DNA from: an uncultured Verrucomicrobiota bacterium
Lineage (GTDB): Bacteria > Verrucomicrobiota > Kiritimatiellia > CAIQIC01 > Lenti-01
NCBI GenBank assembly: GCA_937860055.1
Contig: CALMBO010000028.1
Span: 21,881 to 85,880 of the forward strand
Length of the DNA: 64,000 nt
Reading direction: 5' to 3'
Below, one piece after another: positions 3,831 through 64,000 of the stretch (position 1 is the first letter of the stretch; each line of letters starts with the position of its first letter). The notes below the pieces were generated by a model. It was not told the DNA's origin. It was given only the letters and a program-made list of their open reading frames with translations, and did not search any database. A program made the position numbers and the translations under genes.

Positions 3831-5186
3831 TCATTTTGCGGCGGACATTCTCCGCCAGATAATGGCCCCCACCACCATGAATCCGATCGCATCGTTGACG
3901 ATCAGGGCAAACGCGGACGCGGCGGGGCCGTGCCGGGGCAGGAGCCACACGTTCAGGGCGACCACGATCGCCAACTGCGCGAGATTGATCAGCCAATAGA
4001 TGCGGGCCAGGCCGAAGCTGTAGCCCACCACGCCGATCGGACAGATCAACAGCGAAAAACAATACCGCAGGCAGAGAAGCTGACCGATGAACACGCTGGC
4101 CTCGTACTGGGCCCCGAACAGCAGCGGGGCGAACAAGGGGACGAACAGCGCATAAAGCACGCCTCCGCAGGCCACCAGGAAGCTCAGCCGGAACGTCTTT
4201 TTCAGCAGGGCCCGCGCCGCCGGGAGGTTGTCGAGCGCCGACGCCCGGGGCCACAGCGCCATGTTCAGCGCGTTGAGCACGATGGACAGAGGCAGGGCGA
4301 AGCGGGTCGCCGCATTGTAGATCCCCACCTGGCTCTCATCCAGATAGGCGCCCATCAGCCAGATGTCCGCGCGGACGATGAGGATCACCAGGATCGAGGA
4401 CAGCAGCATGAAGAACGCGAACCGCCCCGGCTCGGTCGCATCCAGCGCATTGGACATGGCGCCATCCAGGCGGGGGCTCCTCCACAAGGCCTTTGCATCG
4501 CCCGGAAACATCCGCTTCAGCTCCGCGGCGGACCATAGCGCAGCCCGGGGAACCAGCAGCAGGGATGCCGCGGCGCAGATCCCGGAGGCGATCAGTCCCA
4601 CCACGACCACCGAAGCCACGGACCAGTGCTTCCAGAATGCCAGTCCGAGGATTCCTGCGAAGAAAATCAGCGCCTGGGCGGTCAGGAGGGAGGCATTGAT
4701 CCCGAACCGCTTGAGCGATTGGAAATAGATGGACGGAACGGAGGACAGGGCGATGAAGACGCCGCTCAGCAGCCCCAGGCGCAGGAAGGCCGTCAGGTCT
4801 TCGGCATGCCAGACCCGCCGGGCAAGCCACGGCGACAGGAAATAGAAAAGCACCGTGAAAACAAGCACCAGGATCACCCGCCGGCGGAACGCCCAGCGCG
4901 AAACCGCCATCTGGCCCTCGGAATCCCCCTGCGCGTCGGCCCGCGAAATATAGCGGATGGCCGTTTGGCCGATCCCCATGTCCGACAGTTGGGCGGAAGT
5001 TTCCGCGAGGCTTTGCACCAAGGCGACCTGCCCCAGGCCGGCGGGACCCAGCCCGCGCGCCATCAGCACGGAGGTAACGAAGCCCGTCGCCACCCGTATG
5101 CCTTGCGGGATCATCGAGACCACCACGTCCCGGATCCCCTTTTTCGACCCCGCCACGGTCGTTGCCAGCCACTTGAACGCGTTCAT
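3831..5186 (-). CDS. polysaccharide/O-unit flippase (Wzx-like, MOP superfamily) membrane protein
   Basis: ~450-aa polytopic membrane protein; N-terminal region matches Wzx/polysaccharide biosynthesis protein family; located in a glycan cluster next to wecB. Confidence 0.65.
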   Translation of the reverse strand: MNAFKWLATTVAGSKKGIRDVVVSMIPQGIRVATGFVTSVLMARGLGPAGLGQVALVQSLAETSAQLSDMGIGQTAIRYISRADAQGDSEGQMAVSRWAFRRRVILVLVFTVLFYFLSPWLARRVWHAEDLTAFLRLGLLSGVFIALSSVPSIYFQSLKRFGINASLLTAQALIFFAGILGLAFWKHWSVASVVVVGLIASGICAAASLLLVPRAALWSAAELKRMFPGDAKALWRSPRLDGAMSNALDATEPGRFAFFMLLSSILVILIVRADIWLMGAYLDESQVGIYNAATRFALPLSIVLNALNMALWPRASALDNLPAARALLKKTFRLSFLVACGGVLYALFVPLFAPLLFGAQYEASVFIGQLLCLRYCFSLLICPIGVVGYSFGLARIYWLINLAQLAIVVALNVWLLPRHGPAASAFALIVNDAIGFMVVGAIIWRRMSAAK

Positions 5187-5208
5187 GGATGAGGCGGTTT
5201 GCGGGACA

Positions 5209-6348
5209 TCACCGCGCGGCATTTCCGAGGATGGCCTGCCCGATCCTCGGGGCGGCATGCCCGTCGCCATAGGGATTCCGCGCGCGCGCCATCCGGGCGT
5301 ATGCGGCAGGATCGCCGGCGAGCTTCCGGATCCAGCGCAGGATCGCCTGCCCGTCCGTCCCCACCAGCCGAGCGTTCCCCGTGCGGATCCCCTCGGGACG
5401 TTCCGTCGTGTTTCGAGTCACCAGCACCGGAACGCCGAAGGTCGGCGCCTCCTCCTGGATGCCGCCGGAATCCGTCACGACCAGCCAGGCCCGCTTCAAC
5501 AAGGCCACCATCACCGGATAGTCCACCGGCGGCACCAGGAAAATCCCCGGATGTCCGCCCAGCAGGCGATGGACCGGCGCCTTCACGTTCGGATTCAGGT
5601 GCACCGGATAGACGAAATCCAGCTCCGGCAACGCCTCCGCCGCCGCCTTCAGGGCCAAACATATCTGCTCCAGGCCGCCACCGAAGTTCTCGCGGCGGTG
5701 CCCCGTCACCAGCACCAGCTTCCGGCCTCTGGCCGGTGGCGGAATCCCGGCCGGCATCTCCGGCGGATTCCGGCGGATCTTCCGGGCGGCCCACAGCAAG
5801 GCGTCGGTCACCGTGTTTCCGGTCCGGACGATGGCGCCCACGGGCACGCCTTCCCGGCGCAGGTTCCGGACGGCGAGATCGGTCGGCGCAAAATGGAGAT
5901 CGGCCAGCACGCCGACCAGCCGGCGGTTGATTTCCTCCGGGAATGGCGAGTACTTGTTGTTCGTCCGCAGGCCGGCCTCCACGTGCGCGACGCGGATCTT
6001 CCGGTAGTAGGCGGCCAGGCCGGCCGCCATGGCGGTGGTGGTGTCGCCCTGGACAACGACCCAGTCCGGCCGTTCAACCTCCAGCACCCGGTCCAGGCCG
6101 GACAGGATCCGGCCGGTCAACTCGCACAATTTCTGGTCCGGCCGCATGACATCCAGGTCATGCGCCGGAGAAAGGCCGAAGAACTCCAGCATCGGTTCCA
6201 GCATTTCCCGATGCTGGGAAGTGGTGACCAGCACGCAACGAAATTCCCGGTGGTGGTTCAGTTCCAGCACCACGGGAGCCAGCTTGATGGCCTCCGGCCG
6301 GGTGCCCATCACGACCAATACTTTTTGAGCCTGTTTCCTGGTTTTCAT
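5209..6348 (-). CDS. wecB: UDP-N-acetylglucosamine 2-epimerase (non-hydrolysing)
   Basis: MKTRKQAQKVLVVMGTRPEAIKLAPVV... N-terminus and overall length typical of WecB/MnaA epimerases. Confidence 0.85.
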   Translation of the reverse strand: MKTRKQAQKVLVVMGTRPEAIKLAPVVLELNHHREFRCVLVTTSQHREMLEPMLEFFGLSPAHDLDVMRPDQKLCELTGRILSGLDRVLEVERPDWVVVQGDTTTAMAAGLAAYYRKIRVAHVEAGLRTNNKYSPFPEEINRRLVGVLADLHFAPTDLAVRNLRREGVPVGAIVRTGNTVTDALLWAARKIRRNPPEMPAGIPPPARGRKLVLVTGHRRENFGGGLEQICLALKAAAEALPELDFVYPVHLNPNVKAPVHRLLGGHPGIFLVPPVDYPVMVALLKRAWLVVTDSGGIQEEAPTFGVPVLVTRNTTERPEGIRTGNARLVGTDGQAILRWIRKLAGDPAAYARMARARNPYGDGHAAPRIGQAILGNAAR

Positions 6349-7784
6349 CTTCCTGCCCGACTGGCTTCAATGTATCCGGCCCATCCCTTGGGAGCAAGCG
6401 CGGCCGGAAACGGAGGCTGGAAATCCGGAAAGGCGGGCGGCGCCCCGCCTACCCGCCAGCGCATGTCGTCGCCGGCATGCTGAAGCAGCGGGATCCGGGC
6501 GGGGTCGAACCCCAGCAGGCGCGCGCCCAGGAAATCGCCGACCACCGGATTGCGCACCGCGAAGACCGCGCCCGTGGCGAGCGGATCGGGAGCCAGCGGT
6601 CCTTCGCCCTGCCCGGCCACGACCGCATCCACGATGGAAATCTCCTCCCGCTGCGGCGCCTCCTGCATCCGTCCGCCCGTGTCCGCATAGAGCAGCGCGC
6701 GGTTCAGGTCGAGGCAGGTGCGCCAGATGGTGTCGTTGCCGTGCCAGCTCCCGTCGATCTGGACGGAGGGATCCTCCTTCGCCGCCACCGCCATCAGCCA
6801 CCACACCACGCGCTCGCAGAAACGGTAGAGGCGCGGAAACCCCCGGATCCGGTTGGCCCCGTCCAGCAGCGCCTCCCCCAGCGCCATCTGCCAGTGCGCA
6901 TGTTCGTAGTTGTCGCCCGCCCCGCCGTCGGCCCCGCCCTTGCGGTGGTGCGGCAGATATTCCTTGTTGCCGTTGATGCCGATCAGGTTCTTCAGGCAGC
7001 AGGTGATCCCCGCCTTCTTGTGAGCCTTGAGCTTGGGCACGTTCACCACCAGATCGGCCTCCAGAATCTCCCGCGCGACCAGATACCGGTGGCGGCCCGG
7101 GCGATGGTGCGCCCGCATCTTCCGGGGATCGTAGACCGTCACCCGGAACTTTTTCCAATCCCGTGAAATGGGTTCCAGCAGGCTGTCCGCCCCCAGATCC
7201 ACCTGTGCATATTCCGATTCCGGACGCAGCTCCTCGTCCACCCGCTTCAGCCCGCCCTCTTCCTTCATCACGGTGCGCCGGAAGTCCTTCACGGCCAGCG
7301 GCAGCCCCCGGGCCAGGAAACCGTCGACCACCGCGCGCAGCCCGCCGGAATCCAGCAGGCGTTCGAAATCGCATCCCTGGATGGGCGCATCGCCCAGCAC
7401 CACCTGCGCGGGTTTCGCCAGAAAGACGTATTCCAGCACGGCGCGCAGCACCGACGGGTGCGTGATCATGCAATCCATTCCGCCGCCGCCCATATTGGCA
7501 TGGAAGACCCAGTTGGGCTTCACCACGATCCTGCCGCCGGGCTTCACCAGGTCGCCCAGCGGATTCCATGCCGGCGTGCCGAAGCGCGAAGCATCGCGCC
7601 CCAGGTCCCGCAACGCTTCGCGAACCAGCCGGAAAACCGGGTTCGGCTCCGCGCCGACGGCCAGGGACGGGAATTCGGGAAGCGCCTCGTCCGGCGCATA
7701 GGGCGCGGCGGAACCCGGCGGATACTCCGCCGGGCCCCTCATGCGAGCCAACGCCCACGCCACAGATTGAACGATGCCGGACAA
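6345..7784 (-). CDS. DUF362 domain protein (glycan-cluster associated)
   Basis: RIVVKPNWVFHAN...ITHPSVLRAVLEYV signature of DUF362; 4-bp overlap with wecB start. Confidence 0.55.
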   Translation of the reverse strand: MSGIVQSVAWALARMRGPAEYPPGSAAPYAPDEALPEFPSLAVGAEPNPVFRLVREALRDLGRDASRFGTPAWNPLGDLVKPGGRIVVKPNWVFHANMGGGGMDCMITHPSVLRAVLEYVFLAKPAQVVLGDAPIQGCDFERLLDSGGLRAVVDGFLARGLPLAVKDFRRTVMKEEGGLKRVDEELRPESEYAQVDLGADSLLEPISRDWKKFRVTVYDPRKMRAHHRPGRHRYLVAREILEADLVVNVPKLKAHKKAGITCCLKNLIGINGNKEYLPHHRKGGADGGAGDNYEHAHWQMALGEALLDGANRIRGFPRLYRFCERVVWWLMAVAAKEDPSVQIDGSWHGNDTIWRTCLDLNRALLYADTGGRMQEAPQREEISIVDAVVAGQGEGPLAPDPLATGAVFAVRNPVVGDFLGARLLGFDPARIPLLQHAGDDMRWRVGGAPPAFPDFQPPFPAALAPKGWAGYIEASRAGR

Positions 7785-7794
7785 AGCCCGATCC

Positions 7795-8310
7795 TCAACC
7801 CAAGGCGGCCAGCGCCGCGGCGTAGTCGGGTTCGTGGGTCAGCTCGGACACGAGCTGGCTGTGCTTCACGACGCTGTTCTCGTCGAGAACGATCACCGCG
7901 CGGGCCTGCAACCCCATCAGCGCGTGCTCCACGATCAGCGTGCCGTAGTCCATCCCGAACTCCGGCGAGCGGAACGTGGAGAGGAACTTCCCGTTCGGCG
8001 CCTTCAGCGTCGAACAAAAGCGCGCCTGCGCAAACGGCAGGTCGGCCGAAACCGTCAGCACCACCACATCGGGGCGTTTCGCGACCTCCTCGTTGAATTT
8101 CCTGGCGGAAAGCTGGCAAACGGGCGTATCCAGCGAAGGCACGATGTTCAGGATCTTCTTCTTGCCGGGAAAATCCCCGAGGGCCCAATCCTTGAACTCC
8201 TGGTCGGCCAGATGCAGGGCGGGAGCCACGCTCCCGACGGCGGGCAACCGGTGGAAGGTATGCGCCGGCTTCCCGCGGATGGTGAAGGCCTGGGGTTCGA
8301 GTTCGCTCAT
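7795..8310 (-). CDS. tpx: thiol peroxidase (atypical 2-Cys peroxiredoxin)
   Basis: ILNIVPSLDTPVC peroxidatic Cys motif and a second Cys ~35 aa downstream; length ~170 aa. Confidence 0.8.
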   Translation of the reverse strand: MSELEPQAFTIRGKPAHTFHRLPAVGSVAPALHLADQEFKDWALGDFPGKKKILNIVPSLDTPVCQLSARKFNEEVAKRPDVVVLTVSADLPFAQARFCSTLKAPNGKFLSTFRSPEFGMDYGTLIVEHALMGLQARAVIVLDENSVVKHSQLVSELTHEPDYAAALAALG

Positions 8311-8326
8311 CTCCGGTTCCTTTCGG

Positions 8327-9064
8327 TCAGAGCCAAGCATACTGCAAGGAGGACAAAATGAAAAGCGCCGCCGTCTCGACGCGGAACACGATGGGCCCGA
8401 ACGTGACCGGCCGCACTCCGGCCGCCAGCAGCGCGGAAACCTCCGCGGCGCTGAAATCCCCCTCCGGCCCGATGAACATCGCGATCTGCGGGCAGTTCTC
8501 CTTGCGCAGCCGGCCGAAGAAATCCGGCAGCGGGACGGCGCCCTCCTGCAACGCGCCGAAGCAGGCGGCCCCCGGCCGCCCCGCCAGCGCGGACAACGCC
8601 TCCGGCAGTTTCCGCACCGGCTCGATCTTCGGCATCCAGGGGTTTCCGCTCTGCTTGCACGCGCCCAGCGCGATGGCCTGCCAGCGCGCCGCCTTCTTCT
8701 CCGCCTCTTCGGGCCGGATGCGCACCACGGCCTGGTCGGTCTGCAGCGGCCAGATTTCGTGCACGCCCAGTTCCACCGCCTTCTGGATCAGCCAGTCCAT
8801 CCTCTGCTCGCGCACCAGCGCCTGCGCCAGGATCCTCCGCGGCGCGAACGGCGCCACCGACGTCCGAGACAGGATGCGGAGCGACGTGCGCTTCTTGTGC
8901 GGCGCAACCACCTCCGCCTCTCCCAGACGCCCCTCCCCGTCCAGGATCCCGATGTGGTCGCCCGCCTGGGCGCGCATCACGGAAGCCAGATGCTTCGATT
9001 CCGATTCATCCAGCTCGGCCAGGTCGGCCGCCCATCGGCCGGCAGGCAAATAGCAACGGATCAT
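8327..9064 (-). CDS. rsmE: 16S rRNA (uracil1498-N3)-methyltransferase
   Basis: MIRCYLPAG...AEVVAPHKKRTSLRIL...FIGPEGDFSAAEV...GPIVFRVETAAL motifs of RsmE (245 aa). ATG confirmed at 9062-9064. Confidence 0.8.
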   Translation of the reverse strand: MIRCYLPAGRWAADLAELDESESKHLASVMRAQAGDHIGILDGEGRLGEAEVVAPHKKRTSLRILSRTSVAPFAPRRILAQALVREQRMDWLIQKAVELGVHEIWPLQTDQAVVRIRPEEAEKKAARWQAIALGACKQSGNPWMPKIEPVRKLPEALSALAGRPGAACFGALQEGAVPLPDFFGRLRKENCPQIAMFIGPEGDFSAAEVSALLAAGVRPVTFGPIVFRVETAALFILSSLQYAWL

Positions 9065-9153
9065 CGATGGACTCCTTCCGGAAAAAGCCGAAGGCACGTT
9101 CGCGGATGCGAACGTGCCTTGCGGATGACCAGCCTCATCGGCGGAGGATCGGC

Positions 9154-9795
9154 CTAGAAGAGGAATTTCGCGCCGAGGCGGACATAGCCGCCTTCGAATT
9201 CCGCATCGCGGACGGAACGGCCCGCATATTCCGTGTCGCCGCTCATGACATCCATCTGGTATCCGAGGCCGCCCAGCACATAGAGGTTCTCGGTCACCAT
9301 GTACTCGTATTCGGCGCCGATGTTCCACAGGATGGCCCCGTCGATATCCACGTCCTGGGTTTCCTGGGCCGTCTCCTCGTTGTTGTAGACGGTCACGCCG
9401 GAATCCACGAACACGTATTGCAGCCCCGTCTCGAGGATCAGGTTCCAGTTGTCCCAATCAATCATGTTGAAGTAGAGCGAAGCGCCGACGGGGATCAGCG
9501 TCGCATCGCCGTCGTAGTCGCTCAGCTTGTCGTACTTGAAGGCGTCCGAATCGTTGTCCACCTGCCACTGGGACACGCCGAGGCTGATGCCCGCGCCCCA
9601 CGGGAAGCTGAACCACTCGCGGTAGGAAACCAATGCGCCATAGCCGGCCTTGAACAGATCGCAATCGGCGGAATCGGGGAAGAAGAACTGGCCCGAAACC
9701 GTCAGCTCGCCCGGCTCTTCGCTGAGCATGCCGCCCATCGCCACACCCGCGCCCAGCAGGGCCGCGAACAGGAACAAAACCGCCTTTTTCATCAT
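9154..9795 (-). CDS. outer-membrane beta-barrel protein (OmpW/porin-like), secreted
   Basis: Signal peptide MMKKAVLFLFAALLGAGVA; alternating amphipathic strands; C-terminal aromatic residue (…GAKFLF). Confidence 0.55.
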   Translation of the reverse strand: MMKKAVLFLFAALLGAGVAMGGMLSEEPGELTVSGQFFFPDSADCDLFKAGYGALVSYREWFSFPWGAGISLGVSQWQVDNDSDAFKYDKLSDYDGDATLIPVGASLYFNMIDWDNWNLILETGLQYVFVDSGVTVYNNEETAQETQDVDIDGAILWNIGAEYEYMVTENLYVLGGLGYQMDVMSGDTEYAGRSVRDAEFEGGYVRLGAKFLF

Positions 9796-9944
9796 TTTCT
9801 GCCTCTTCCTTTTAAGATTGAAAACGTTCGGAATCTACCCCAACCCCCCGGGCTTTGTAAAGCGCGCGCAAGCTTTCCGGCGGGGAAACCGCCGGAGGCA
9901 TGCACCCCCGCCGCCCATCCATGCCGTGGAAAACCCGCCGGCCG

Positions 9945-10652
9945 TCACCGGCGGTCGATCCGGTAGGTAATCGGCACATCCACCTCGAAGCCGCCGGGCA
10001 GCGTGTTCGTCCCCAGGGGCTTCTCCGCCGCGCGGCGCAGGATGCCCCGGGCCCCCTCGGCCAGCAGCGCCGATCCGGTGTTCTCCAGGATCCGGACTTT
10101 CCCGATCTCGCCCGTGGACCGGATTTCCACCCGCAGCAGGACGGTGCCGGTTTCGCGGGAATAGCGCGCCGCACCGGGATAGAACTTGCTCTCCTCGATG
10201 CGCCTGCGCAACTGCGCCAGCCATTCGGCGCGGATGGCGTCCTCCCGGCCGGAATCCCCCTCCTCTTCGACTTCCGGTTGCGCCGCGATGGCGGGCGCCG
10301 ACTCGATCTCCGGAGGCGGAACTGCTTCCGGTTCGGGTTCGGGCTCCACCACGGGCTCCGGCAGGGGTTCCGGCTCGGGTTCCGGCGCCGGCTCTGGGAT
10401 GACTTCCGGCGGCGGCTTTTCCGCAGGCGCCGGCGGCGGCTCCTCCACCACCGGCATCGGGACGGGCGCCAGTTCCATCCTCATCTCCGGAAAGATCTGT
10501 GCGGCGCCGGAATCCGGCCACGCATCGAGATGCCGGCCGAAATAGGCGGCTCCCGCCCCCAGCGCCAGCACCAGCGCCCCGGCGGCAATCGCGCTCCACC
10601 GGTCGGCGGAGTCGCGCGCGGGCCTAGTCGGATGTGGCGCCGATGAGGACAT
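9945..10652 (-). CDS. tonB: energy transducer TonB
   Basis: N-terminal TM helix, Pro/Glu-rich spacer (EPEPEPLPEP), C-terminal TonB domain (GTVLLRVEIRSTGEIGKVRIL...). Sits directly downstream of exbB-exbD. The true start may be slightly downstream, because the annotated start overlaps exbD by 29 bp. Confidence 0.7.
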   Translation of the reverse strand: MSSSAPHPTRPARDSADRWSAIAAGALVLALGAGAAYFGRHLDAWPDSGAAQIFPEMRMELAPVPMPVVEEPPPAPAEKPPPEVIPEPAPEPEPEPLPEPVVEPEPEPEAVPPPEIESAPAIAAQPEVEEEGDSGREDAIRAEWLAQLRRRIEESKFYPGAARYSRETGTVLLRVEIRSTGEIGKVRILENTGSALLAEGARGILRRAAEKPLGTNTLPGGFEVDVPITYRIDRR

Positions 10653-47323: not shown

Positions 47324-47575
47324 TCAGTTCAACTTGGTGTTGATTTCGGCCTCGGCCAAAGACCAGAAATAGGCGCTGTCGCCATTGAAACCATGGCGCT
47401 CGGCGATGTAGTACGCCGCTTCCTCGATCATCTTGTAGCGCTGTTCCGGGTTGACCGGCTTGCTCTGGACGGCGGCCTTGGGAGCCACCTTCACAACCGG
47501 CTTTTTGCCCGAAGCGGCCTTGGGCGCCGCTTTCGGAGCCACCTTCTTGGCGGACGATTTCTTGATTTCCTTCAT
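47324..47575 (-). CDS. small basic protein, Lys/Ala-rich N-terminus plus DUF2934
   Basis: KKVAPKAAPKAASGKKPVVKVAPKAA histone-H1-like tail; C-terminal PEQRYKMIEEAAYYIAERHGF (DUF2934). Confidence 0.55.
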   Translation of the reverse strand: MKEIKKSSAKKVAPKAAPKAASGKKPVVKVAPKAAVQSKPVNPEQRYKMIEEAAYYIAERHGFNGDSAYFWSLAEAEINTKLN

Positions 47576-47944
47576 CTTCTACTCCTTGCTCCGGGGCGGA
47601 TCCGAAGCGTTGCGGGTTCACTTTTCCTGCCCCCCACAGCGGGGTGCAAATCTGCGCGAACTCTATTTCACATGGGGGGGATTGCAAGTCCTTTTTCTCC
47701 CTCCGCCATCGGAAGAAACCCGTTGGGAAACCTATCCATTACGCGCATCTTTCGAATGGACAGGCAGATAGGGAAATCTAAAAGATAAATCGTTTTACCC
47801 TGAATATTTTTGATTCGTGCGCTGGATTTTTTAATCCAAATGGCGGAAATCGATAAAAACCGGGCTTTGACAATTTTCCCAAGGCCATCCCTTTTATTCC
47901 AAAAATGAGAGGAATCCGGCCGTCCAAAGCGCTGGTTCGCCGTT

Positions 47945-58024: not shown

Positions 58025-59536
58025 CTACCGCAGCTCGAATTCCACCAGATAGCCCGTGTGGTCGGACACGCGCCCGTAGCGGTTCGCCGTGAACAGCTCC
58101 TCCGCCCAGATCGCCCGCAGCCGGCTGCCCCGCTTGAGCCACAGGTAGTCGATGCGCCCGTCCTGCGCCAGCAGCCGCATCGCGTCGCCCTGCCGTTCGC
58201 GGAACACCTTCTGGAACGTGCGCGGCGAAACGATCTTCAGATACTGGTCCTCGAATCCGCCCGCGTCCACGATGTGCCGGTAGGCCTCGCTGCCCGCCGC
58301 GACGTTGAAATCGCCGCACACCAGCGTGGCGGTCGCCTCGTCCGTGTGCTTTTCGTCCGCCCACCGCTCCAGGCGCTCGAACTGCGGATAGAACCCGTCG
58401 CTCGGCCAGCTCAGGTGCGCGCTGAACACGTTCACCAGCCCGATGTACGGCACGCGCACCTGCGCCATCACGATCTTGCGCGAGTGGATGTCGTAGGGGT
58501 CCCGGCTGTCGGACACGTAGCCCGAATCGACATAGGCGAAAGGATGCCGGCTCAGGATCGCGACGCCTTCGCGGTAGCGGTCGAAGCCGAGGTGCGACCA
58601 GTCCGTGTGCAGATGGTACGGCACCGACAGATGGCCCTGGATGATGCGCGCGGCGTTCGATGCCCAGTCGCCCGCCCCGCCGTTCCAGTTCTCTCCCACT
58701 TCCTGCAGGCAGACGAGATCGATGTTCTGCTCCCGGATCGCCCGCGCCACCTGCTCGAACTTCCGGTGCGGATCCTCCTCCTGGTAGGTGTGCAGGTTCA
58801 GCGTCAGCGCCTTCAGCGTGCCGCGGCGCAGGCGGTAGTTTCGCCCGCCGTGGTTGTCCCAGAAGACCCCCCGCTTCGTCCGGCATTCGACCGCGTACTC
58901 CAGCCGGTAGGCGTGCGGAATCGGGATGCGCCCCGCCCACACCCCCCACCCGTAGCGGTTGGGATTCCGCGCGTTGCTCCCCACGCTCAGGTCCCAGTGG
59001 TTGTGCCGGAAATAGGCGTGCGCCGCATGCGACGTGACCCACCCGTCCTCCGTCCAGTGGATCGCGACGGCCTCCGGCTCCAGCTCCTGCCGCACCGCCA
59101 CCTCCACGGGCAGCGAGACCATCCCCGCCGGCAGCCCCGGATCGCACCCGATCGCCTGCACCGCCGCCGGATCGAAAACAATCACGCCGGAATCCGCATC
59201 CGAACGGTAGTTGCCGCCGAAGCGGCTGTCCCAGTGCTTCTCCCCTTCCCGCTCCATGCACGCCGCGAATTCGATGTTTCCCGGAATCGCCGACTCCATC
59301 GTCAACGGCACGGAAACCTCCGCCGTCCACAGCTCCAGACCCTCCCCCGCCTCGCAGCGGAATTCCGCCGGCGCCGCCCGCCATTCGCGGTCCTCCCCGC
59401 ACCAATGAACCGAAACCCGCTTGCCGAAGCCGATGTTGCGGACGCGCGCCGCGAACGAAATCTCCTGGAAGGTTCCGTTCACCGTCCGGGAAATGATGTT
59501 TTTCACGTAGATCAGCTGGATCGCCGGCATCGCCAT
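58025..59536 (-). CDS. carbohydrate-binding module (CBM20/21-like) fused to endonuclease/exonuclease/phosphatase (EEP) domain
   Basis: N-terminal starch-binding-like beta-sandwich (VSVHWCGEDREW...HWDSRFGGNYR...AIHWTEDGW); C-terminal EEP motifs (LTLNLHTYQE...VCLQEV...LVCGDFN...SDHTGY). Confidence 0.55.
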   Translation of the reverse strand: MAMPAIQLIYVKNIISRTVNGTFQEISFAARVRNIGFGKRVSVHWCGEDREWRAAPAEFRCEAGEGLELWTAEVSVPLTMESAIPGNIEFAACMEREGEKHWDSRFGGNYRSDADSGVIVFDPAAVQAIGCDPGLPAGMVSLPVEVAVRQELEPEAVAIHWTEDGWVTSHAAHAYFRHNHWDLSVGSNARNPNRYGWGVWAGRIPIPHAYRLEYAVECRTKRGVFWDNHGGRNYRLRRGTLKALTLNLHTYQEEDPHRKFEQVARAIREQNIDLVCLQEVGENWNGGAGDWASNAARIIQGHLSVPYHLHTDWSHLGFDRYREGVAILSRHPFAYVDSGYVSDSRDPYDIHSRKIVMAQVRVPYIGLVNVFSAHLSWPSDGFYPQFERLERWADEKHTDEATATLVCGDFNVAAGSEAYRHIVDAGGFEDQYLKIVSPRTFQKVFRERQGDAMRLLAQDGRIDYLWLKRGSRLRAIWAEELFTANRYGRVSDHTGYLVEFELR

Positions 59537-59639
59537 ACGGGGGGAGACCTTAACTGAAAAACCCGGCGCGCGCGAAAGTTTTTTCCCGCGGAAGCGAAAA
59601 TCCGCTATCTTCTCCTGCCATATCGAACGGAGGACCTCC

Positions 59640-60542
59640 ATGAAGAATCCGATCCTGATCCGCCTCGGCCTCCTGGCCGCGCTCCTGGCGCTCGCTTCCG
59701 GCTGCGCCACCACGGACTTCGTCACCGGCCAGCCCGTCCAGAACATCTACAGCCTCGACGAGGATGTCCAGCTCGGCCAGGATTTCTACAAGGAAACCAT
59801 CGCCGAACTGAAGAAGGAAAAGGCGCCCATCGACCAGGATCCCGTCCGCGTCGCCCTCGTGAAGGACGTGACCGCCCACATCGCGGCCGTCGCCAACATC
59901 ACCAACCTCCCCTACCAGGTCACCTATGTAGGCGATCCCGGGATGGTCAACGCCTTCGCCTTCCCCGGCGGAAACATCATGGTCTTCGAAGGCCTCTGGG
60001 ACCCGAAGGAGGGCCTCGTCCAGACCGTGGACGAACTGGCCGCCGTCGTCGCCCACGAGATCGCCCACGTCAACTGCCGCCATTCCACCGAGGCCATGAC
60101 GCGCGAGATGCTGCCCAACCTCATCCTCGCCGGCGGCATGGTCTATGCGTCGATCGAGGAGGACGAGGATCTCCAGCTCCTGTTCGGCGGCCTCATGCTC
60201 GTGCACGACGGCCTCATCGTCACCAAGTATTCCCGCGTGGACGAGCTGGAAGCCGACCGCGTCGGCATGATGTACATGGCCAGGGCCGGCTACGATCCCG
60301 CCGCCGCCCCCCGCGTCTGGGAGCGCCTGGCCGGCGCCAGCGACAACCAGGTCGAAAAGGTCCTCAGCATCTTCTCCACCCACCCGCGCGACTTCAAGCG
60401 CACGCAGGAGCTGCGCAAGCACCTCCCCGAAGCCCAGGCCCTCTACGAAGCCGCCCCCGTCAAGCGCAACGGCTCCAAAAAGCTTTCCGACCTCCCCCCC
60501 CTCCAGAAATCAAAACCCGCCGCCGACGCAGCCAAAAAGTAA
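59640..60542 (+). CDS. M48-family zinc metallopeptidase lipoprotein
   Basis: Lipoprotein signal LLALASGCATT; HEIAHVNCRH zinc motif; stop TAA at 60540-60542 abuts the first (degenerate) CRISPR repeat. Confidence 0.75.
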   Translation: MKNPILIRLGLLAALLALASGCATTDFVTGQPVQNIYSLDEDVQLGQDFYKETIAELKKEKAPIDQDPVRVALVKDVTAHIAAVANITNLPYQVTYVGDPGMVNAFAFPGGNIMVFEGLWDPKEGLVQTVDELAAVVAHEIAHVNCRHSTEAMTREMLPNLILAGGMVYASIEEDEDLQLLFGGLMLVHDGLIVTKYSRVDELEADRVGMMYMARAGYDPAAAPRVWERLAGASDNQVEKVLSIFSTHPRDFKRTQELRKHLPEAQALYEAAPVKRNGSKKLSDLPPLQKSKPAADAAKK

Positions 60543-61835
60543 GTCCCCGGAGATTTGGAATCCAGCGAGTGGAACTGCCCCGCAGCATTCTCGCAGGCGC
60601 TGGATCATCGCCGCCTCAACATGGTTTGAAATCCAGCGAGTGGAACACCTGGTGGGCGGCGCGACTCCCGCACCTGGCTCCGCCTCAACATGGTTTGAAA
60701 TCCAGCGAGTGGAACCCGTTCCGGTGGCGTGCTGGCCCTTGGAGGTGCTCCGCCTCAACATGGTTTGAAATCCAGCGAGTGGAACTTCTCCACGCCGGCC
60801 GCCTTGAAGATCCGCAGAACCGCCTCAACATGGTTTGAAATCCAGCGAGTGGAACAGGCATGGAGGAGGGCGAGGGTGCCAGGATGGAGCCGCCTCAACA
60901 TGGTTTGAAATCCAGCGAGTGGAACACCCAACCCCAGCGGAGGGGCACTTATCAAACTGCCGCCTCAACATGGTTTGAAATCCAGCGAGTGGAACTTTCG
61001 TGCGGAGTCTGTACGAAGATGATTCCTGCCCGCCTCAACATGGTTTGAAATCCAGCGAGTGGAACAAGGTGGTCGCCCCGGCCGCCGAATTGCTGTAGAT
61101 CCGCCTCAACATGGTTTGAAATCCAGCGAGTGGAACCTGGATGGCTTGCTGGGCAACAAACCATGCCGCCCGCCTCAACATGGTTTGAAATCCAGCGAGT
61201 GGAACCTGCACCCTGGGAAGTCTGCGACTTCCTACACGCCCGCCTCAACATGGTTTGAAATCCAGCGAGTGGAACCGCTTGCAGGCCGGGCCTTCGTAGG
61301 TCCCGGAATACCGCCTCAACATGGTTTGAAATCCAGCGAGTGGAACCCAGGGGCCCAAGACGACCGAGACCGAGGGGAACCGCCTCAACATGGTTTGAAA
61401 TCCAGCGAGTGGAACATCATTCGACGGGGAGATGGGGGAATGGTTCGACCGCCTCAACATGGTTTGAAATCCAGCGAGTGGAACACCGGTGAAGCTCCAG
61501 GCCGTCCGGACCTATCTGCCGCCTCAACATGGTTTGAAATCCAGCGAGTGGAACCGTTCACCGTGTCCTTCGCCTTAATTGCTTCCATCCGCCTCAACAT
61601 GGTTTGAAATCCAGCGAGTGGAACCAGCTTTCCCTTGACGCGAAGGATTGCATCTGGACCGCCTCAACATGGTTTGAAATCCAGCGAGTGGAACCACCCT
61701 CATCGCCCGTGCGTCGGGGTCCTTTTGCCCGCCTCAACATGGTTTGAAATCCAGCGAGTGGAACGGGCTCGGTGTGCTTCAAGTGCAGTCGAAGGCAGGC
61801 CGCCTCAACATGGTTTGAAATCCAGCGAGTGGAAC
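60540..61835. CRISPR. CRISPR array: 19 repeats (36 bp, CCGCCTCAACATGGTTTGAAATCCAGCGAGTGGAAC on + strand), 18 spacers of 33-35 bp
   Basis: Repeats start at 60611, 60680, 60750, 60820, 60890, 60960, 61030, 61101, 61170, 61240, 61311, 61380, 61449, 61519, 61589, 61659, 61729 and 61800, all identical. One degenerate terminal copy at 60540-60575 (5' half diverged). No other repeats beyond 61835. Confidence 0.95.
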
Positions 61836-61999
61836 TGTCACAAACAAAACCCAAGTCTGCTCAATTAGTTAAAGATGCGCCTGCGAGCGCGCCAGACAAA
61901 CTGCGTTTCGGCATGGTCGGGCAAACCCCATTTAGCTGCGCAGTCGCCTTGGATTCATTATACTGCGAGAGCCCCTCAGCGAATCCCGAGGCAATGCCG
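61836..61999. promoter_or_regulatory. putative CRISPR leader (AT-richer segment adjacent to the intact-repeat end of the array)
   Basis: tgtcacaaacaaaacccaagtctgctcaattagttaaagatgcgcc... immediately flanks the last perfect repeat. The opposite array end has a degenerate repeat directly abutting a gene stop codon, so this side is the likely leader. Confidence 0.4.
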
Positions 62000-62043
62000 C
62001 ACTCGCTGGATTTCAAACAGCTGCTTTTCCAATGGCGGAGGAA
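62000..62043. ncRNA. candidate tracrRNA element: 19-nt anti-repeat plus adjacent 7-bp hairpin
   Basis: 62000-62018 CACTCGCTGGATTTCAAAC is the exact reverse complement of repeat segment GTTTGAAATCCAGCGAGTG. With G-U pairs the duplex extends to ~23 bp, reaching repeat nt 1 in minus-strand sense. Followed by hairpin CTTTTCC-aatggcgga-GGAAAAG (62021-62043). Transcript ends and strand not determinable from sequence. Confidence 0.5.
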
Positions 62044-62100
62044 AAGTGGTCATGGCCCTATAGGCGAGAGCATTGGAACAAAATGTGCCGCAAAAGTAAA

Positions 62101-62391
62101 TCAGATTATGGTGACCCGCGCGTGTTGGGCATAAGGGATGCCGAGGGCTTCGATGGACAAGCTGCCGTCTGCATCCTTCGCGCCGAGGGTGATGAATAGC
62201 ACCTGGTCTTCGGTGTGGTGGATGATTCCGTCCATGGCCGATCTCATTTCCTGCAGCCGCAGCGGGTCCAGCAGGCACTCAAAAACCGAGAATTGAAGGC
62301 GATAGCCAAATCCTTCGGCAATGCGGGCCACACCCCGGAGCCGCTTGGGATCAGCGATGTCGTAACTGACGATATAGCGCCGCTGGTTCAT
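62101..62391 (-). CDS. cas2: CRISPR-associated endoribonuclease Cas2
   Basis: MNQRRYIVSYDIADPKRLRGVARIAEGFGYRLQFSVFECLLDP..., the canonical Cas2 N-terminus. ATGA overlap with the cas4-cas1 stop (62388-62391). Confidence 0.85.
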   Translation of the reverse strand: MNQRRYIVSYDIADPKRLRGVARIAEGFGYRLQFSVFECLLDPLRLQEMRSAMDGIIHHTEDQVLFITLGAKDADGSLSIEALGIPYAQHARVTII

Positions 62392-64000
62392 CGGGTCGTG
62401 AAGCCGTAGTACCGGCCGGCCTCCCCGCGCAAAACGCGCCATAACTGCCGGACCTGCACCTCAAGCATGCGCCGATAGGTCATCTTGTATTTGAACTGCG
62501 GGTGGGAAACCTCCGTGTCCATCCGCCGAAAATAGGCCTCCCAGAAAGCCCGCCGCCCGGTCTCATCCAAGAAAACGCCTTTGGAACTGAATACGAAATC
62601 CTTTTCGTCCAATTCGTGCCGGTTGAGCAAGCTGATGGCCACACTGTCCGCGATCAGCGGGCGAAACTCCTCCATTAGATCCAATGCCAACGCTGGGCGG
62701 CCATAACGCGGCTGGTGGAAGAATCCGAGGAACGGATCCAGCCCGACGGCATGGCAGATGCCGGCCAATTCCTTGGCCAACATGCTGTAGCCCAGCGAAA
62801 GCAAGGCATTCACCGGATCGCGCGGGGGGCGACGATTGCGGGCCGAAAAATCGAAAGCGTGGCCGGCCGCCTTCAGCATGCCCGCGAAATTGCCGAAATA
62901 GGTGGCGGCCGCGCTCCCTTCCAAACCTCGGACCTCATCCAGCGATGTCGCATGCTCCGTCTGGTCGCGCAACCGCTTCAGTTCCTCGGCGTCCGCCGTT
63001 TCCGGATTCCCGTTCCGCATCAACATGACCCGTTGGTTGTGGATTTTCGCGCGAATGATTTCCCGCGTTAGCTCCAGCCGGATGTCTTCGCGCTCGAACA
63101 GGCGATATTGCCCGCGGCGCGCTTCCGTTCCGGAAGCTCCAAGCCCTTGCAATAGGCCCAGAAATCTCCCCGCTGGCGAGAAGTAGGCCACTGGAATGTC
63201 CGCTTCCAACAGCTGTTGCACGGCCTGTTCCGAAATCTGCACGGCACCGTACAAGTACACTTGTTTCAGTTGGCCCAGTGCCAGGTTGCCCACTCTTTCA
63301 TCCTTCAGCCACACTTCCACGTTGCCGCCGCGAATTCCGATCCGGGCACCCGGCTTCTGAACCACCAGCACTTCCCCTTCGTCGTTGTCGGGCCGGGGCG
63401 GGCGCTCGATTTCCGGCGGACGTTCGCCAGTTGTTTTCCAATAGGTCGACTCTTCAGGGAGACAGACCGGATATAGCGAGCAATACAGGCATCGCGGATC
63501 GCCCACCAACGGTTCAGGAATGCTCGTTCCAGCCGCCACGCGACGCGCCTCCGCCAGAACGGTCCGGCACCGATCCAGCAATTCCGCAGCCAAAGGTACT
63601 TCCACGCGCCGTTTGTCCGCCCCGTAATAGATCCAGCCGCGAGCCGCCACGCGCCCCTGTTCGGCCAGCAAAAGAGCCTGCGCAGCGATTTGGATGGCAT
63701 CCGCCTCCTTGGCCATCCGCTCGCCGGCATCGTTTCGGGCGGCCGACCCCTTTTTGTAGTCTACCAGTTCCACTCCCTGCCCGGTGGCTTCCGCCAAATC
63801 CACCACGCCGACCAACCCCAGCGCCTCGCTGGAAAGTTCCAAGCTTTTCAGGGTAATACCCGCCTCCAAGACATCGGGCATGTTCTCTTTGATCTGGCTG
63901 GGCACGTCCACGTTGCGATGCATGGCGGAGCCGGCGACCGTGTCCGCGTTCTCCACGAAAACGTTTTCCACCCATTGGAAGTAGAACAAGCGCGGACAAT
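62388..64000 (-). CDS. cas4-cas1: Cas4-Cas1 fusion protein (partial; N-terminus beyond window end)
   Basis: N-terminal RecB-type nuclease motifs (GVVDLAE...VELVDYKKG, QIAAQALL) and C-terminal Cas4 Cys cluster CLYCSLYPVC. Then a Cas1 domain (GNVEVWLKDERV..., RNRRPPRDPVNALLSLGYSML, DPFLGFFHQPRYGRPALALDLMEEFRPLIAD). The frame remains open to position 64000 (upstream residues ...CPRL), so the gene is truncated by the window. Confidence 0.85.
   Translation of the reverse strand, partial: CPRLFYFQWVENVFVENADTVAGSAMHRNVDVPSQIKENMPDVLEAGITLKSLELSSEALGLVGVVDLAEATGQGVELVDYKKGSAARNDAGERMAKEADAIQIAAQALLLAEQGRVAARGWIYYGADKRRVEVPLAAELLDRCRTVLAEARRVAAGTSIPEPLVGDPRCLYCSLYPVCLPEESTYWKTTGERPPEIERPPRPDNDEGEVLVVQKPGARIGIRGGNVEVWLKDERVGNLALGQLKQVYLYGAVQISEQAVQQLLEADIPVAYFSPAGRFLGLLQGLGASGTEARRGQYRLFEREDIRLELTREIIRAKIHNQRVMLMRNGNPETADAEELKRLRDQTEHATSLDEVRGLEGSAAATYFGNFAGMLKAAGHAFDFSARNRRPPRDPVNALLSLGYSMLAKELAGICHAVGLDPFLGFFHQPRYGRPALALDLMEEFRPLIADSVAISLLNRHELDEKDFVFSSKGVFLDETGRRAFWEAYFRRMDTEVSHPQFKYKMTYRRMLEVQVRQLWRVLRGEAGRYYGFTTR

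Follow-up and report, generated by a model that had tools for sequence, protein, structure and literature searches.

A predicted type V-B (Cas12b) tracrRNA between cas2 and the CRISPR array of an uncultured Verrucomicrobiota bacterium

A tracrRNA candidate in the cas2-array intergenic region

The minus strand of the region between cas2 and the CRISPR array, at positions 61996-62066, very probably encodes the tracrRNA of a type V-B (Cas12b) CRISPR-Cas system. Positions refer to the window, that is, the whole 64,000-nt stretch of DNA that was analysed. The predicted tracrRNA core comprises stem-loop 1, a linker, stem 2 with a short anti-repeat, and a long anti-repeat. A first-pass annotation of the window had already placed a tracrRNA candidate between cas2 and the array, and this proposal was supported by the conservation of the element in related loci, by covariation, and by an adjacent Cas12b gene. 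Judged from its sequence and its relatives, the intergenic RNA is a known kind of RNA, predicted here for a large, uncharacterised, and mainly verrucomicrobial clade of Cas12b.

Gene order and effector of the locus

The cas2 gene (96 aa; Pfam PF09827 and TIGR01573) was located at 62101-62391 and the cas4/cas1 fusion gene at 62388-64000, both on the minus strand; the latter is cut by the end of the window. On the source contig, a gene for a 1358-aa Cas12b lies immediately beyond this edge, directly upstream of cas4/cas1-cas2 (locus L001: cas12b, 4240-8316; cas4/1, 8319-10004; cas2, 10001-10291). The order on the minus strand of the source contig is cas12b, cas4/cas1, cas2, the tracrRNA element, the leader, and the array. 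This 558-kb contig carries an identical Cas2 protein, and its intergenic sequence is the same as that of the window.

The effector scored 716.9 bits against the NCBIfam Cas12b equivalog (cut-off, 150) and also matched C2c1_RuvC-like of Pfam. Its residues D752, E1101, and D1231, which are read as the RuvC triad, were unchanged across 37 homologues. Since Cas12b adjoins cas4/cas1-cas2 outside the window, the locus is assigned to canonical type V-B, and it is a complete and apparently functional system. Type I-G was considered because NCBIfam labels the Cas4/Cas1 fusion as Cas4g/Cas1g; it was rejected, as Cas12b is encoded next door and Cascade genes are absent from the contig.

The CRISPR array and the long anti-repeat

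The CRISPR array (60540-61835, minus strand) contains 18 spacers of 33-35 nt, and its repeat reads GUUCCACUCGCUGGAUUUCAAACCAUGUUGAGGCGG in the crRNA sense. Eighteen perfect 36-nt repeats occupy 60611-61835, and a degenerate copy was found at about 60540-60575, at the cas2-distal end, which agrees with the earlier placement of a degenerate repeat at the far end. Protospacers were sought for a PAM and a separate test of orientation: the whole array, compared with GenBank phages, gave only one 28-nt match (E=0.4), and IMG/VR contained no exact copy of the first 22 nt of spacer 1, 3, or 4.

The sequence at 62000-62018 had been described as a perfect complement of 19 nt of the repeat, and this was confirmed. 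CACTCGCTGGATTTCAAAC is present there as a single plus-strand copy and is complementary to every repeat at 19 of 19 positions. A search with CACTCGCTGGATTTCAAAC returned 19 minus-strand matches, which belong to the array, and one plus-strand match, for which the chance expectation was 0.01. Outside the 19-mer, the resemblance to the repeat is lost for 4 nt on one flank and for 13 nt on the other. With flanks that stop matching so sharply, the 19-mer is no uniformly decayed copy of a repeat.

On the minus strand, this segment would give the long anti-repeat GUUUGAAAUCCAGCGAGUG (62000-62018), which pairs with nt 5-23 of the repeat. The adjoining 61996-61999 can extend the duplex to repeat nt 1 by a C·C mismatch followed by G·U, G·U, and C-G pairs. 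This is the minus-sense duplex that the first-pass annotation had counted from the repeat's first nucleotide as G-C, U-G, U-G, one mismatch, and 19 pairs. In about 40 loci, the anti-repeat was found 155-210 nt upstream of the array, and in most of them its pairing reaches repeat nt 30, adjoining AGGCGG. In the window and in L007, L087, and L089, the long duplex ends at repeat nt 23, and seven repeat bases (24-30) together with a 5-nt spacer of the tracrRNA are unpaired. In L087, a close relative, the change of repeat A6 to G is matched by a change of U to C in the tracrRNA, by which an A-U pair becomes a G-C pair. The duplex energies averaged −34.1 kcal/mol for cognate and −22.6 kcal/mol for non-cognate combinations. 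Known V-B tracrRNAs carry two discontinuous anti-repeat segments in their 3' part and act with a crRNA of the repeat-spacer order (PMC6546382); likewise, read on the minus strand, the long anti-repeat of the window comes after the conserved hairpins, towards the 3' end.

Conservation and covariation of the tracrRNA core

More than 80 related Cas12b loci were collected for comparison. The tracrRNA element was present in 61 of 83 loci, whose Cas12b proteins share 30-90% identity. For a covariance model (R1), 37 relatives with Cas12b identities of up to about 55% were used, and neither this locus nor its two nearest relatives contributed. The model matched 61998-62066 on the minus strand only, with 53.1 bits (E=1.6e-10), whereas the second-best match in the 64 kb had 18 bits. 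Weak matches at 47346-47401 and 47695-47717 were put down to chance after inspection. An Rfam scan of 60400-62400 with E values of up to 10 returned only RAGATH-25, a chance match, and no tracrRNA family.

The 5' hairpin of the predicted tracrRNA, stem-loop 1 (GCCU AUA GGGC), folds from 62055-62065 of the minus strand. In alignment A2, this helix was paired in 86.7% of cells, with two-sided changes at two of its three pairs. It is followed by a 7-nt linker, AUGACCA (62047-62053, minus strand), which fits the conserved motif ACCGACCA of the relatives; the linker columns were nearly invariant in alignments A2 and A3.

Stem 2 was located at 62024-62046 of the minus strand, with arms at 62040-62046 and 62024-62030. 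The 7-bp CTTTTCC/GGAAAAG hairpin of the first-pass annotation is therefore real, but it had been placed 3 nt off, at 62021-62043. It had also been said to follow the anti-repeat; on the predicted transcribed strand it comes first, and it encloses a second anti-repeat, CCGCC, in its 9-nt loop UCCGCCAUU (62031-62039, minus strand). Across 40 loci, 98.6% of stem 2 cells were paired, and changes on both sides were seen at six of the seven pairs. When the partner strand was slid by 1-3 columns, pairing fell to 37-56%. The covariation score was 0.646 against 0.210 and was reached by none of 500 shuffles, although the shuffle and Wilcoxon statistics overstate independence owing to kinship among the loci. 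Stem 2 abuts the long anti-repeat in most relatives, and the two are 5 nt apart in the window.

These observations bear on the reading that the 19-mer is a functionless remnant of an inverted and decayed repeat and that the hairpin is incidental. Repeat-like remnants are known near arrays (PMC10120712), and the first-pass annotation had named a degenerate remnant as the finding that would speak against its candidate. However, the 19-nt match is perfect and its flanks are sharp, the element and its position are kept in the 61 loci over the whole range of Cas12b identity, the stem covaries, and the anti-repeat co-evolves with its cognate repeat. A remnant is thus extremely unlikely.

The short anti-repeat CCGCC (62034-62038, minus strand) is the complement of the last five nucleotides of the repeat (GGCGG), next to the guide. 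Within the loop, CCGCC was invariant in alignment A2. In L023, the repeat ends in GACGG and the loop reads CCGUC, a compensatory change, and the same double change (CCGUC/GACGG) was found in cis in L011. Because CCGCC and GGCGG are almost invariant, the covariation that supports the short duplex comes from these two lineages. We infer a pseudoknot between the loop CCGCC and the repeat end. AGGCGG has a further possible partner in UCGCCU at 62059-62064 (minus strand), which was rejected as the short anti-repeat because it lies within stem-loop 1 and is not conserved, whereas the loop CCGCC is invariant. An inner hairpin corresponding to stem 3 was not found, as the loop measures just 9-11 nt in all 40 aligned loci. 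Stem 3 is a feature of the solved guides of Alicyclobacillus acidoterrestris (Aac) and Candidatus Hydrogenedentes (Ch) Cas12b (PMC12204704) and lies outside the published definition of the family (PMC6546382).

Candidate promoter, 3' module, and leader

A candidate promoter for the tracrRNA was found at 62072-62100 of the minus strand, with a −35-like TTTACT (62095-62100) and a −10-like TCCAAT (62072-62077) separated by 17 nt. It starts right behind the cas2 stop codon and ends 5 nt before the start of the model match. In most of the 61 loci, a sequence of the form TTGnnn-16/17-(TTGAAT, TCCAAT or TATAnT) ends 4-6 nt upstream of the element. Its hexamers are near consensus in AT-rich relatives, as in L081 (TTGACT-17-TATTAT). 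Promoter and terminator prediction across 61836-62100 had been put forward in the first-pass annotation as a check. A consensus scan of 61700-62400 called neither a sigma-70 promoter nor an intrinsic terminator on either strand, the candidate being below the threshold. In four AT-rich relatives, the scan called no terminators and one good promoter, that of L081. The ends of the tracrRNA are therefore predictions.

A 3' module of about 42 nt with the pattern GCGAG(Y)GC ... GCUCGC, at 61965-62006 of the minus strand, is conserved in relatives. Its length was constant and its arms were invariant in 33-37 loci, and its 5' arm overlaps the long anti-repeat in the lineage of the window. RNAalifold gave seven pairs for the module, none of them changed on both sides, and the one-sided changes left 15 G·U cells against 2 A·C cells. 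In the absence of two-sided changes, the module was not accepted as a covarying RNA helix, a sequence motif being equally possible. It may represent a 3' domain, a terminator, or a processing element. T-runs were noticed by eye after the module in some AT-rich relatives.

TATAAT at 61957-61962 (minus strand) was read in the sequence as a speculative −10 candidate for pre-crRNA transcription, and L087 and L089 have CATAAT at the same place. TATAAT is not accompanied by an acceptable −35 and is not called by the consensus scan. A leader motif, (G)CGCUCGC, was found at 61883-61887 of the minus strand, 52 nt upstream of the first repeat; in 35 of 40 loci, the distance of this motif from the first repeat is 51-53 nt. 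The leader-like region had been described as AT-richer. This is so, but only mildly: the GC content of the cas2-array intergenic region is 0.53-0.54, compared with 0.58-0.65 in its flanks.

The same RNA elements could be carried by one long minus-strand transcript, possibly a continuation of that of cas2, which would span the tracrRNA, the 3' module, the leader, and the array and would later be processed; the tracrRNA would then have no separate gene. Both in the window and in the four relatives, no terminator was called on the stretch from the anti-repeat to the array, and in the window a convincing promoter for the array itself is lacking; both findings fit a single transcript. Nevertheless, the promoter-like element stands at a fixed spacing upstream of the tracrRNA in many loci, although it is still compatible with read-through. 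The T-runs seen by eye after the module, and TATAAT or CATAAT after the module in this lineage, also speak against a single transcript. We regard the single transcript as a minor possibility beside a tracrRNA gene of its own.

Strand of the predicted RNA and polarity of the crRNA

The first-pass annotation had favoured transcription from the minus strand, on which the cas genes and the array are also read, and the comparison of loci lends support to this preference. The closing pair of stem 2 was U·G in 23 of the 40 loci and C-G in 11. In both helices together, 27 cells were G·U in the cas sense, compared with 7 A·C cells. The repeat:anti-repeat duplex was compared in both orientations, as the annotation had also suggested, and was more stable in the cas sense in 31 of 40 loci (p=1e-4, for loci that are related). 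In L087 and L089, G·U pairs occur only in the cas sense. The G·U wobbles, the promoter-like element at fixed spacing, the compensatory changes, and model R1 place the predicted RNA on the minus strand.

In the cas-gene sense, the repeats of 44 of 50 related arrays end in GAGGCGG, while the opposite end varies. With this conserved end next to the spacer and the degenerate repeat distal to cas2, the sequence points to a crRNA polarity of 5'-repeat-spacer-3' in this locus. In L022, the array is inverted, and the tracrRNA element is inverted along with it.

These features also bear on a plus-strand tracrRNA acting with a plus-strand array, in which the anti-repeat would pair with the 3' part of the repeat and leave a 4-nt GAAC tail before the spacer. 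Watson-Crick complementarity is equal on both strands. In addition, the repeat would then end in GUGGAAC, which resembles the end of the Alicyclobacillus Cas12b repeat, GUGGCAC. On the other hand, the GGAAC end varies among relatives, whereas the opposite end is nearly invariant, and there is no conserved short anti-repeat of the GUUC type upstream. The 23 U·G closing pairs and the wobbles of the repeat duplex would turn into A·C mismatches, and the degenerate repeat would fall at the leader end. The conserved promoter geometry is likewise that of the minus strand, and the covariance model has no plus-strand match at the locus. A plus-strand RNA is therefore very unlikely. The first-pass annotation had attached the Cas12b/Cas12e geometry, with its GAAC tail, to the plus strand; the V-B family was correct, but the strand was not, as it is the GAGGCGG end and not the GAAC end that is conserved.

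Proposed guide architecture and comparison with known systems

In the proposed mechanism, transcription of the tracrRNA would start probably near 62066, from the weak promoter just after the cas2 stop codon. The RNA would consist, from 5' to 3', of stem-loop 1, the 7-nt linker, a 7-bp stem with CCGCC in a 9-nt loop, a 5-nt spacer, and GUUUGAAAUCCAGCGAGUG. The array would likewise be transcribed from the minus strand. In the repeat, GUUC-CACUCGCUGGAUUUCAAAC-CAUGUUGA-GGCGG, nt 5-23 (1-23 with wobbles) would pair with the long anti-repeat and the last five bases with the loop CCGCC. The long duplex would presumably be processed by a host RNase. The two duplexes would form a pseudoknotted scaffold bound by Cas12b, and the downstream spacer would serve as the guide for DNA cleavage. 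A V-B guide contains a long duplex and a short duplex of 5-7 bp between the long duplex and the guide, in a pseudoknot (PMC11246509), and the predicted pair of long and short repeat:anti-repeat duplexes, the second beside the guide, is this Cas12b dual-RNA geometry.

The first-pass annotation had seen in this locus an unusual mix of a type II-like RNA arrangement and a V-B-like Cas4-Cas1 fusion. Such a reading would require a dual RNA in which the 5' part of the repeat is paired, the crRNA has the spacer before the repeat, and hairpins lie 3' of the anti-repeat, in combination with a V-B-type adaptation module. The long duplex of this lineage, which spans repeat nt 1-23 and not 24-30, would by itself resemble type II pairing. 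However, pairing reaches nt 30 in most relatives, and nt 32-36, beside the downstream spacer, are paired with the loop. The covarying hairpin is 5', not 3', of the anti-repeat on the predicted transcribed strand, with no terminator hairpins after the anti-repeat. cas9 is absent and the neighbouring effector is Cas12b, there is no Rfam match to a tracrRNA or another RNA family, and type V pre-crRNAs have the order 5'-repeat-spacer-3' (PMC6546382). The mix is thus scarcely credible; the effector is a bona fide Cas12b and the geometry is that published for V-B. The predicted RNA shares with type II (Cas9) tracrRNAs that it is trans-encoded and that its anti-repeat pairs with every pre-crRNA repeat. 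It differs from them in the effector, the crRNA polarity, the second short duplex, the position of the anti-repeat (5' in type II, 3' here), and the lack of a nexus or terminator hairpin 3' of the anti-repeat and of an Rfam tracrRNA match. A type V-E (Cas12e/CasX) tracrRNA, which would form a single long duplex and a triple helix, was also rejected, as the effector scores as Cas12b and not as Cas12e, and a 5-bp duplex that shows compensatory changes makes the second contact.

The tracrRNA genes of characterised type V-B systems lie between cas genes and array (PMC6342934). The predicted RNA shares this position with the systems of Alicyclobacillus acidoterrestris, Bacillus thermoamylovorans (Bth), and B. 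hisashii, as well as the 3' anti-repeat split into a long and a short segment and the repeat-then-spacer crRNA. The Cas12b of this locus matches those of Aac and Bth only over the RuvC region (E values of 1e-10 to 4e-15). The locus also differs from characterised V-B systems in that the repeat ends in GAGGCGG, the short anti-repeat stands alone in a 9-nt hairpin loop and not in a larger junction, a 7-nt repeat stretch between the duplexes is unpaired in this lineage, and a conserved module (about 42 nt) comes after the long anti-repeat.

The closest likeness in element order is to ChCas12b (PDB 9kln), the best PDB match. Its guide consists of stem 1, a 7-nt linker (L2), a 6-bp stem 2 around a 5-nt anti-repeat, and a long anti-repeat (PMC12204704). 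The two RNAs share the succession of stem 1, 7-nt linker, 6-7-bp stem 2 with a 5-nt anti-repeat for the last five repeat nucleotides, and, directly behind stem 2, long anti-repeat; the comparison covers the order of the elements. ChCas12b is likewise long (1496 aa, compared with 1358 aa here), although the protein similarity covers only about 260 residues (E=2e-18). Where the loop of stem 2 has only 9-11 nt here, that of the ChCas12b guide contains a further stem 3 and linkers.

Implications for Cas12b guides

The comparison settles the annotation of the window: the intergenic RNA is best described as a predicted V-B tracrRNA on the minus strand, and the locus is no chimera of type II and type V. 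It also yields a consensus tracrRNA and a covariation-supported covariance model for a large clade of Cas12b, of which the four Cas12b proteins of solved structure are no more than distant relatives. A survey in 2018 had too few known V-B loci to derive guide rules (PMC6546382). The model, the invariant GAGGCGG end, and the pairing rules of both duplexes are what the design of a single-guide RNA needs. Natural single-guide-like RNAs occur among the relatives; for L063 and L070, a 9-nt seed match and the cas12b promoters raise the possibility of autoregulation.

A wider reading joins three features: a mostly verrucomicrobial clade with a distinct minimal V-B scaffold, a switch formed by the 42-nt module, and a link through CGCUCGC. 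Taken together, we consider this reading conceivable but rather unlikely. The minimal scaffold may present its short anti-repeat in the 9-nt hairpin loop; without stem 3, it would be a loop-to-strand pseudoknot. As module and long anti-repeat have the module's 5' arm in common in the lineage of the window, a switch of the tracrRNA between a self-folded and a crRNA-bound state would be possible. If this reading is true, the recurrence of CGCUCGC 51-53 nt before the first repeat could link the tracrRNA, transcription of the array, and spacer integration.

Type of the CRISPR locus and its effector

In the window, cas2 (62101-62391) and a gene for a Cas4-Cas1 fusion (62388 to beyond the window end, i.e. 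62388-64000; L001:8319-10004 on the source-strain contig that carries cas12b) lie on the minus strand. The identical Cas2 protein was found on 15 public contigs, and the longest of these (558 kb) has the same intergenic sequence as the window. On this contig, a 1358-aa C2c1/Cas12b gene is located directly upstream of cas4/cas1. Its product scored 716.9 bits against the NCBI Cas12b equivalog model (cut-off, 150) and also matched Pfam C2c1_RuvC-like. D752, E1101, and D1231 were invariant in 37 Cas12b homologues, from which we infer that they form the RuvC triad. The solved ChCas12b, BthCas12b, and AacCas12b are only distant relatives of this protein and match it in the RuvC region alone (E values of 2e-18 to 1e-10).

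The fusion protein passes the NCBIfam type I-G model Cas4g/Cas1g (639 bits over the full length; cut-off, 560), so that an automatic annotation confined to the window would point to type I-G. Because no Cascade genes are present at the locus, this match is a mere family resemblance, and type I-G was rejected. Since Cas12b adjoins cas4/cas1 outside the window, the order cas12b-cas4/1-cas2-[tracr element]-array is the canonical type V-B arrangement. The first-pass annotation, which had proposed an unusual mix of a type II-like RNA arrangement and a V-B-like fusion, does not hold in this respect.

A predicted tracrRNA between cas2 and the array

The CRISPR array (60540-61835) contains 18 perfect 36-nt repeats, reading CCGCCTCAACATGGTTTGAAATCCAGCGAGTGGAAC on the plus strand, and spacers of 33-35 nt, with a degenerate repeat copy at its far end (approximately 60540-60575). 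The sequence CACTCGCTGGATTTCAAAC occurs as a single plus-strand copy at 62000-62018 in the window; as first annotated, it is a perfect complement to 19 nt of all the repeats, with a chance expectation of 0.01. The match has sharp edges, and its flanks are unlike the repeat. A 7-bp hairpin is present beside it (arms, 62024-62030 and 62040-62046; loop, 62031-62039); its existence had been recognized earlier, whereas the coordinates then assigned to it were off by 3 nt. No Rfam family matched the element.

The tracrRNA predicted on the minus strand (62066 to 61996) would read 5'-CGCCUAUAGGGCC-AUGACCA-CUUUUCC-U[CCGCC]AUU-GGAAAAG-CAGCU-[GUUUGAAAUCCAGCGAGUG]CGGC-3', and the repeat, in crRNA sense, GUUC-[CACUCGCUGGAUUUCAAAC]-CAUGUUGA-[GGCGG], after which comes the spacer. 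Repeat nt 5-23 would pair with the long anti-repeat, and repeat nt 32-36, adjoining the guide, with the loop CCGCC. Transcription, the RNA ends, processing by RNase, and binding to Cas12b are putative steps of this scheme.

In V-B systems, repeat and anti-repeat form two duplexes, one long and one short, and the short duplex separates its long counterpart from the guide (PMC11246509); the anti-repeat is split into two discontinuous segments, both located in the tracrRNA 3' part (PMC6546382). The predicted element resembles these published examples in having two duplexes and a split 3' anti-repeat. Its order of elements is also that of the ChCas12b guide, namely, stem 1, a 7-nt linker, a 6-bp stem 2 enclosing the 5-nt anti-repeat, and the long anti-repeat (PMC12204704). 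Judged from its sequence, the element has each testable defining feature of a V-B tracrRNA. On the other hand, unlike ChCas12b and published V-B systems, it has no inner stem 3, repeat nt 24-30 are unpaired in the window's lineage, and a conserved GCGAG...CUCGC module of approximately 42 nt comes after the long anti-repeat. A type II tracrRNA was rejected: the locus lacks cas9, the hairpins flank the anti-repeat on the side opposite to that in type II, and a terminator is lacking. The limited set of literature searched contained no account of a tracrRNA from this clade. The element is biologically ordinary; its use lies in annotation and in the rule that it provides for designing sgRNAs.

Conservation of the element in related loci

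An alignment of the 37 Cas12b homologues was used to retrieve 80 loci, mostly of Verrucomicrobiota, from species-representative genomes; each was oriented with cas12b on the plus strand, and three closer metagenomic relatives were added. Of the 80 loci, 50 had a detected array. The repeats of 44 of these arrays end in (U)GAGGCGG in the sense of the cas genes (cas sense), and the opposite repeat end is variable. All type V pre-crRNAs are 5'-repeat-spacer-3' (PMC6546382), and the conserved spacer-adjacent end looks like a type V 5' handle.

About 40 loci have an anti-repeat upstream of the array, at a distance of 155-210 nt; in most of them, the pairing reaches repeat nt 30, adjoining AGGCGG. 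When the sequences were anchored on the anti-repeat, a shared architecture was seen, in which a small hairpin, GGCYAnnGGCC, is followed by the motif ACCGACCA, then by a 6-7-bp stem whose loop reads UYCCGCCAUUG, and finally by the long anti-repeat. R1, a covariance model of the element trained on 37 relatives with the window's lineage left out, detected it in 61 of the 83 related loci, on the cas12b strand in 60 of the 61 and downstream of cas2 wherever adaptation genes were present. In one relative without adaptation genes (L091:10099-10600; Cas12b 55% identical), approximately 150 nt separate cas12b from the element downstream of it, and the mini-array that comes next comprises a single full repeat, a single spacer, and a degenerate repeat.

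In the 40-locus alignment, the 7-bp stem was paired in 98.6% of the cells, and both-sided changes were found in six of its seven pairs. The stem covariation score was 0.646, compared with 0.210±0.019 for shuffles (0 of 500 reached 0.646), and pairing fell to 37-56% when the 3' partner was slid by 1-3 columns. The loop CCGCC was invariant and complements the invariant GGCGG at the repeat 3' end. This invariance was broken in two lineages, with compensation in both: L023 has the loop CCGUC and a repeat ending in GACGG, and an sgRNA-like element of L011 has CCGUC and GACGG within one molecule. By these patterns, the predicted hairpin is a helix conserved at the RNA level, and the loop is a second anti-repeat. 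In L087 (88% Cas12b identity), a tracr U to C change compensates repeat A6 to G. The mean tracr:repeat duplex energies were -34.1 kcal/mol for cognate and -22.6 kcal/mol for non-cognate pairs. By these comparisons, the two sides of the predicted long duplex co-evolve.

Strand of the element

Watson-Crick pairing is alike for both strands and does not discriminate between them. An orientation check based on the PAM was ruled out because no spacer matched any phage (array against GenBank phages; spacers 1, 3, and 4 against IMG/VR). The stem is closed by a U·G pair in 23 loci and by C-G in 11, and both helices together contain 27 G·U cells versus 7 A·C cells in cas sense. In 31 of 40 loci, stability of the repeat:anti-repeat duplex favoured cas sense (p=1e-4 by a Wilcoxon test on non-independent loci). 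The close relatives L087 and L089 contain G·U pairs; read from the opposite strand, these would be A·C mismatches. The window's three extra pairs (G·U, G·U, and C-G to repeat nt 1), described at first pass as a minus-sense extension of the duplex, were confirmed and form in minus sense only.

R1 matched the window at 61998-62066 on the minus strand (53.1 bits, E=1.6e-10; next in the window, 18 bits) and gave no scoring match on the plus strand at the locus. Weak matches at 47346-47401 and 47695-47717 (+) (18 and 15 bits), the latter an intergenic hairpin with the loop CUCCGCCAUC, were judged to be due to chance because neither an anti-repeat nor GAGGCGG comes after the hairpin.

A -35/-10-like pair ends 4-6 nt ahead of the element in most of the 61 loci and is near consensus in AT-rich genomes (e.g. 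TTGACT-17-TATTAT in L081). The corresponding pair in the window, TTTACT-17-TCCAAT, begins directly past the cas2 stop codon. Consensus scans found neither a promoter nor a terminator in the window and no terminators in four AT-rich relatives. At L022:15-805, the element and array are upstream of cas12b and inverted relative to it, and they remain mutually co-oriented. All the lines that discriminate between the strands point to a tracr element encoded on the cas strand, i.e. the window minus strand.

The 3' module and a leader motif

Nearly all loci have a constant-length module of approximately 42 nt, GCGAG(Y)GC...GCGCUCGC, after the long anti-repeat. The window's module (61965-62006, minus strand) overlaps the long anti-repeat; in this lineage, its 5' arm (GCGAG) is inside the anti-repeat, and CUCGC is present in the repeat itself, so that self-pairing of the module and pairing with the repeat would compete. 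The arms were invariant, with no both-sided changes; the one-sided changes comprised 15 G·U cells versus 2 A·C cells. Since the arms never change on both sides, the module need not be a helix and may instead be a sequence motif.

In addition, 35 of 40 loci (L007-L085) have (G)CGCTCGC (RNA, CGCUCGC) ahead of the first repeat, at a distance of 51-53 nt; in the window, CUCGC is at 61883-61887 on the minus strand, 52 nt from the first repeat. Since its distance from the leader-repeat junction is fixed, the motif may be a leader element that acts in spacer integration or in transcription of the array.

Single-guide-like copies in relatives

In six relatives, the tracr scaffold is present in an additional copy upstream of cas12b, located on the plus strand at L028:6329-6420, L063:6522-6700, L070:6530-6700, and L033:3053-3180, and on the minus strand at L054:6600-6795 and L011:2200-2423. 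The window's own locus has no such copy. In place of the long anti-repeat, these copies have a hairpin leading into the repeat 3' end, ...UUGAGGCGG, and a spacer-like tail. With the hairpin joining the scaffold to the repeat end and tail, they have the appearance of natural single-guide RNAs. In four of the six (L063, L070, L028, and L033), the tail begins with 7-11 nt matching a TTC- or ATC-flanked site close by. In L063 and L070, this site is approximately 10 nt downstream of a near-consensus promoter ahead of cas12b (TTGACA-16-TACAAT and TTGACG-16-TATATT, respectively). This arrangement resembles the autoregulation of cas9 by tracr-L (summarised in PMC10120712) and, by analogy, suggests that Cas12b may repress its own expression in a similar manner; no V-B report of this kind was found in the literature searched.

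Genomic context

The same genes flank the CRISPR locus in the window and in L089 (76% Cas12b identity): on the array side, an M48 peptidase gene (59640-60542, plus strand) and a gene for a CBM21 and endonuclease/exonuclease/phosphatase protein (58025-59746, minus strand), and upstream of cas12b, Zincin_1, common to both lineages. Because of these shared flanks, the locus appears to be chromosomal and vertically inherited in the window's lineage. In three Logan assemblies of the same strain (L003, L004, and L006), the array is reduced to one spacer, the oldest, flanked by the first repeat and by the degenerate terminal one; this reduction is most likely repeat collapse from short-read assembly and no biological difference.
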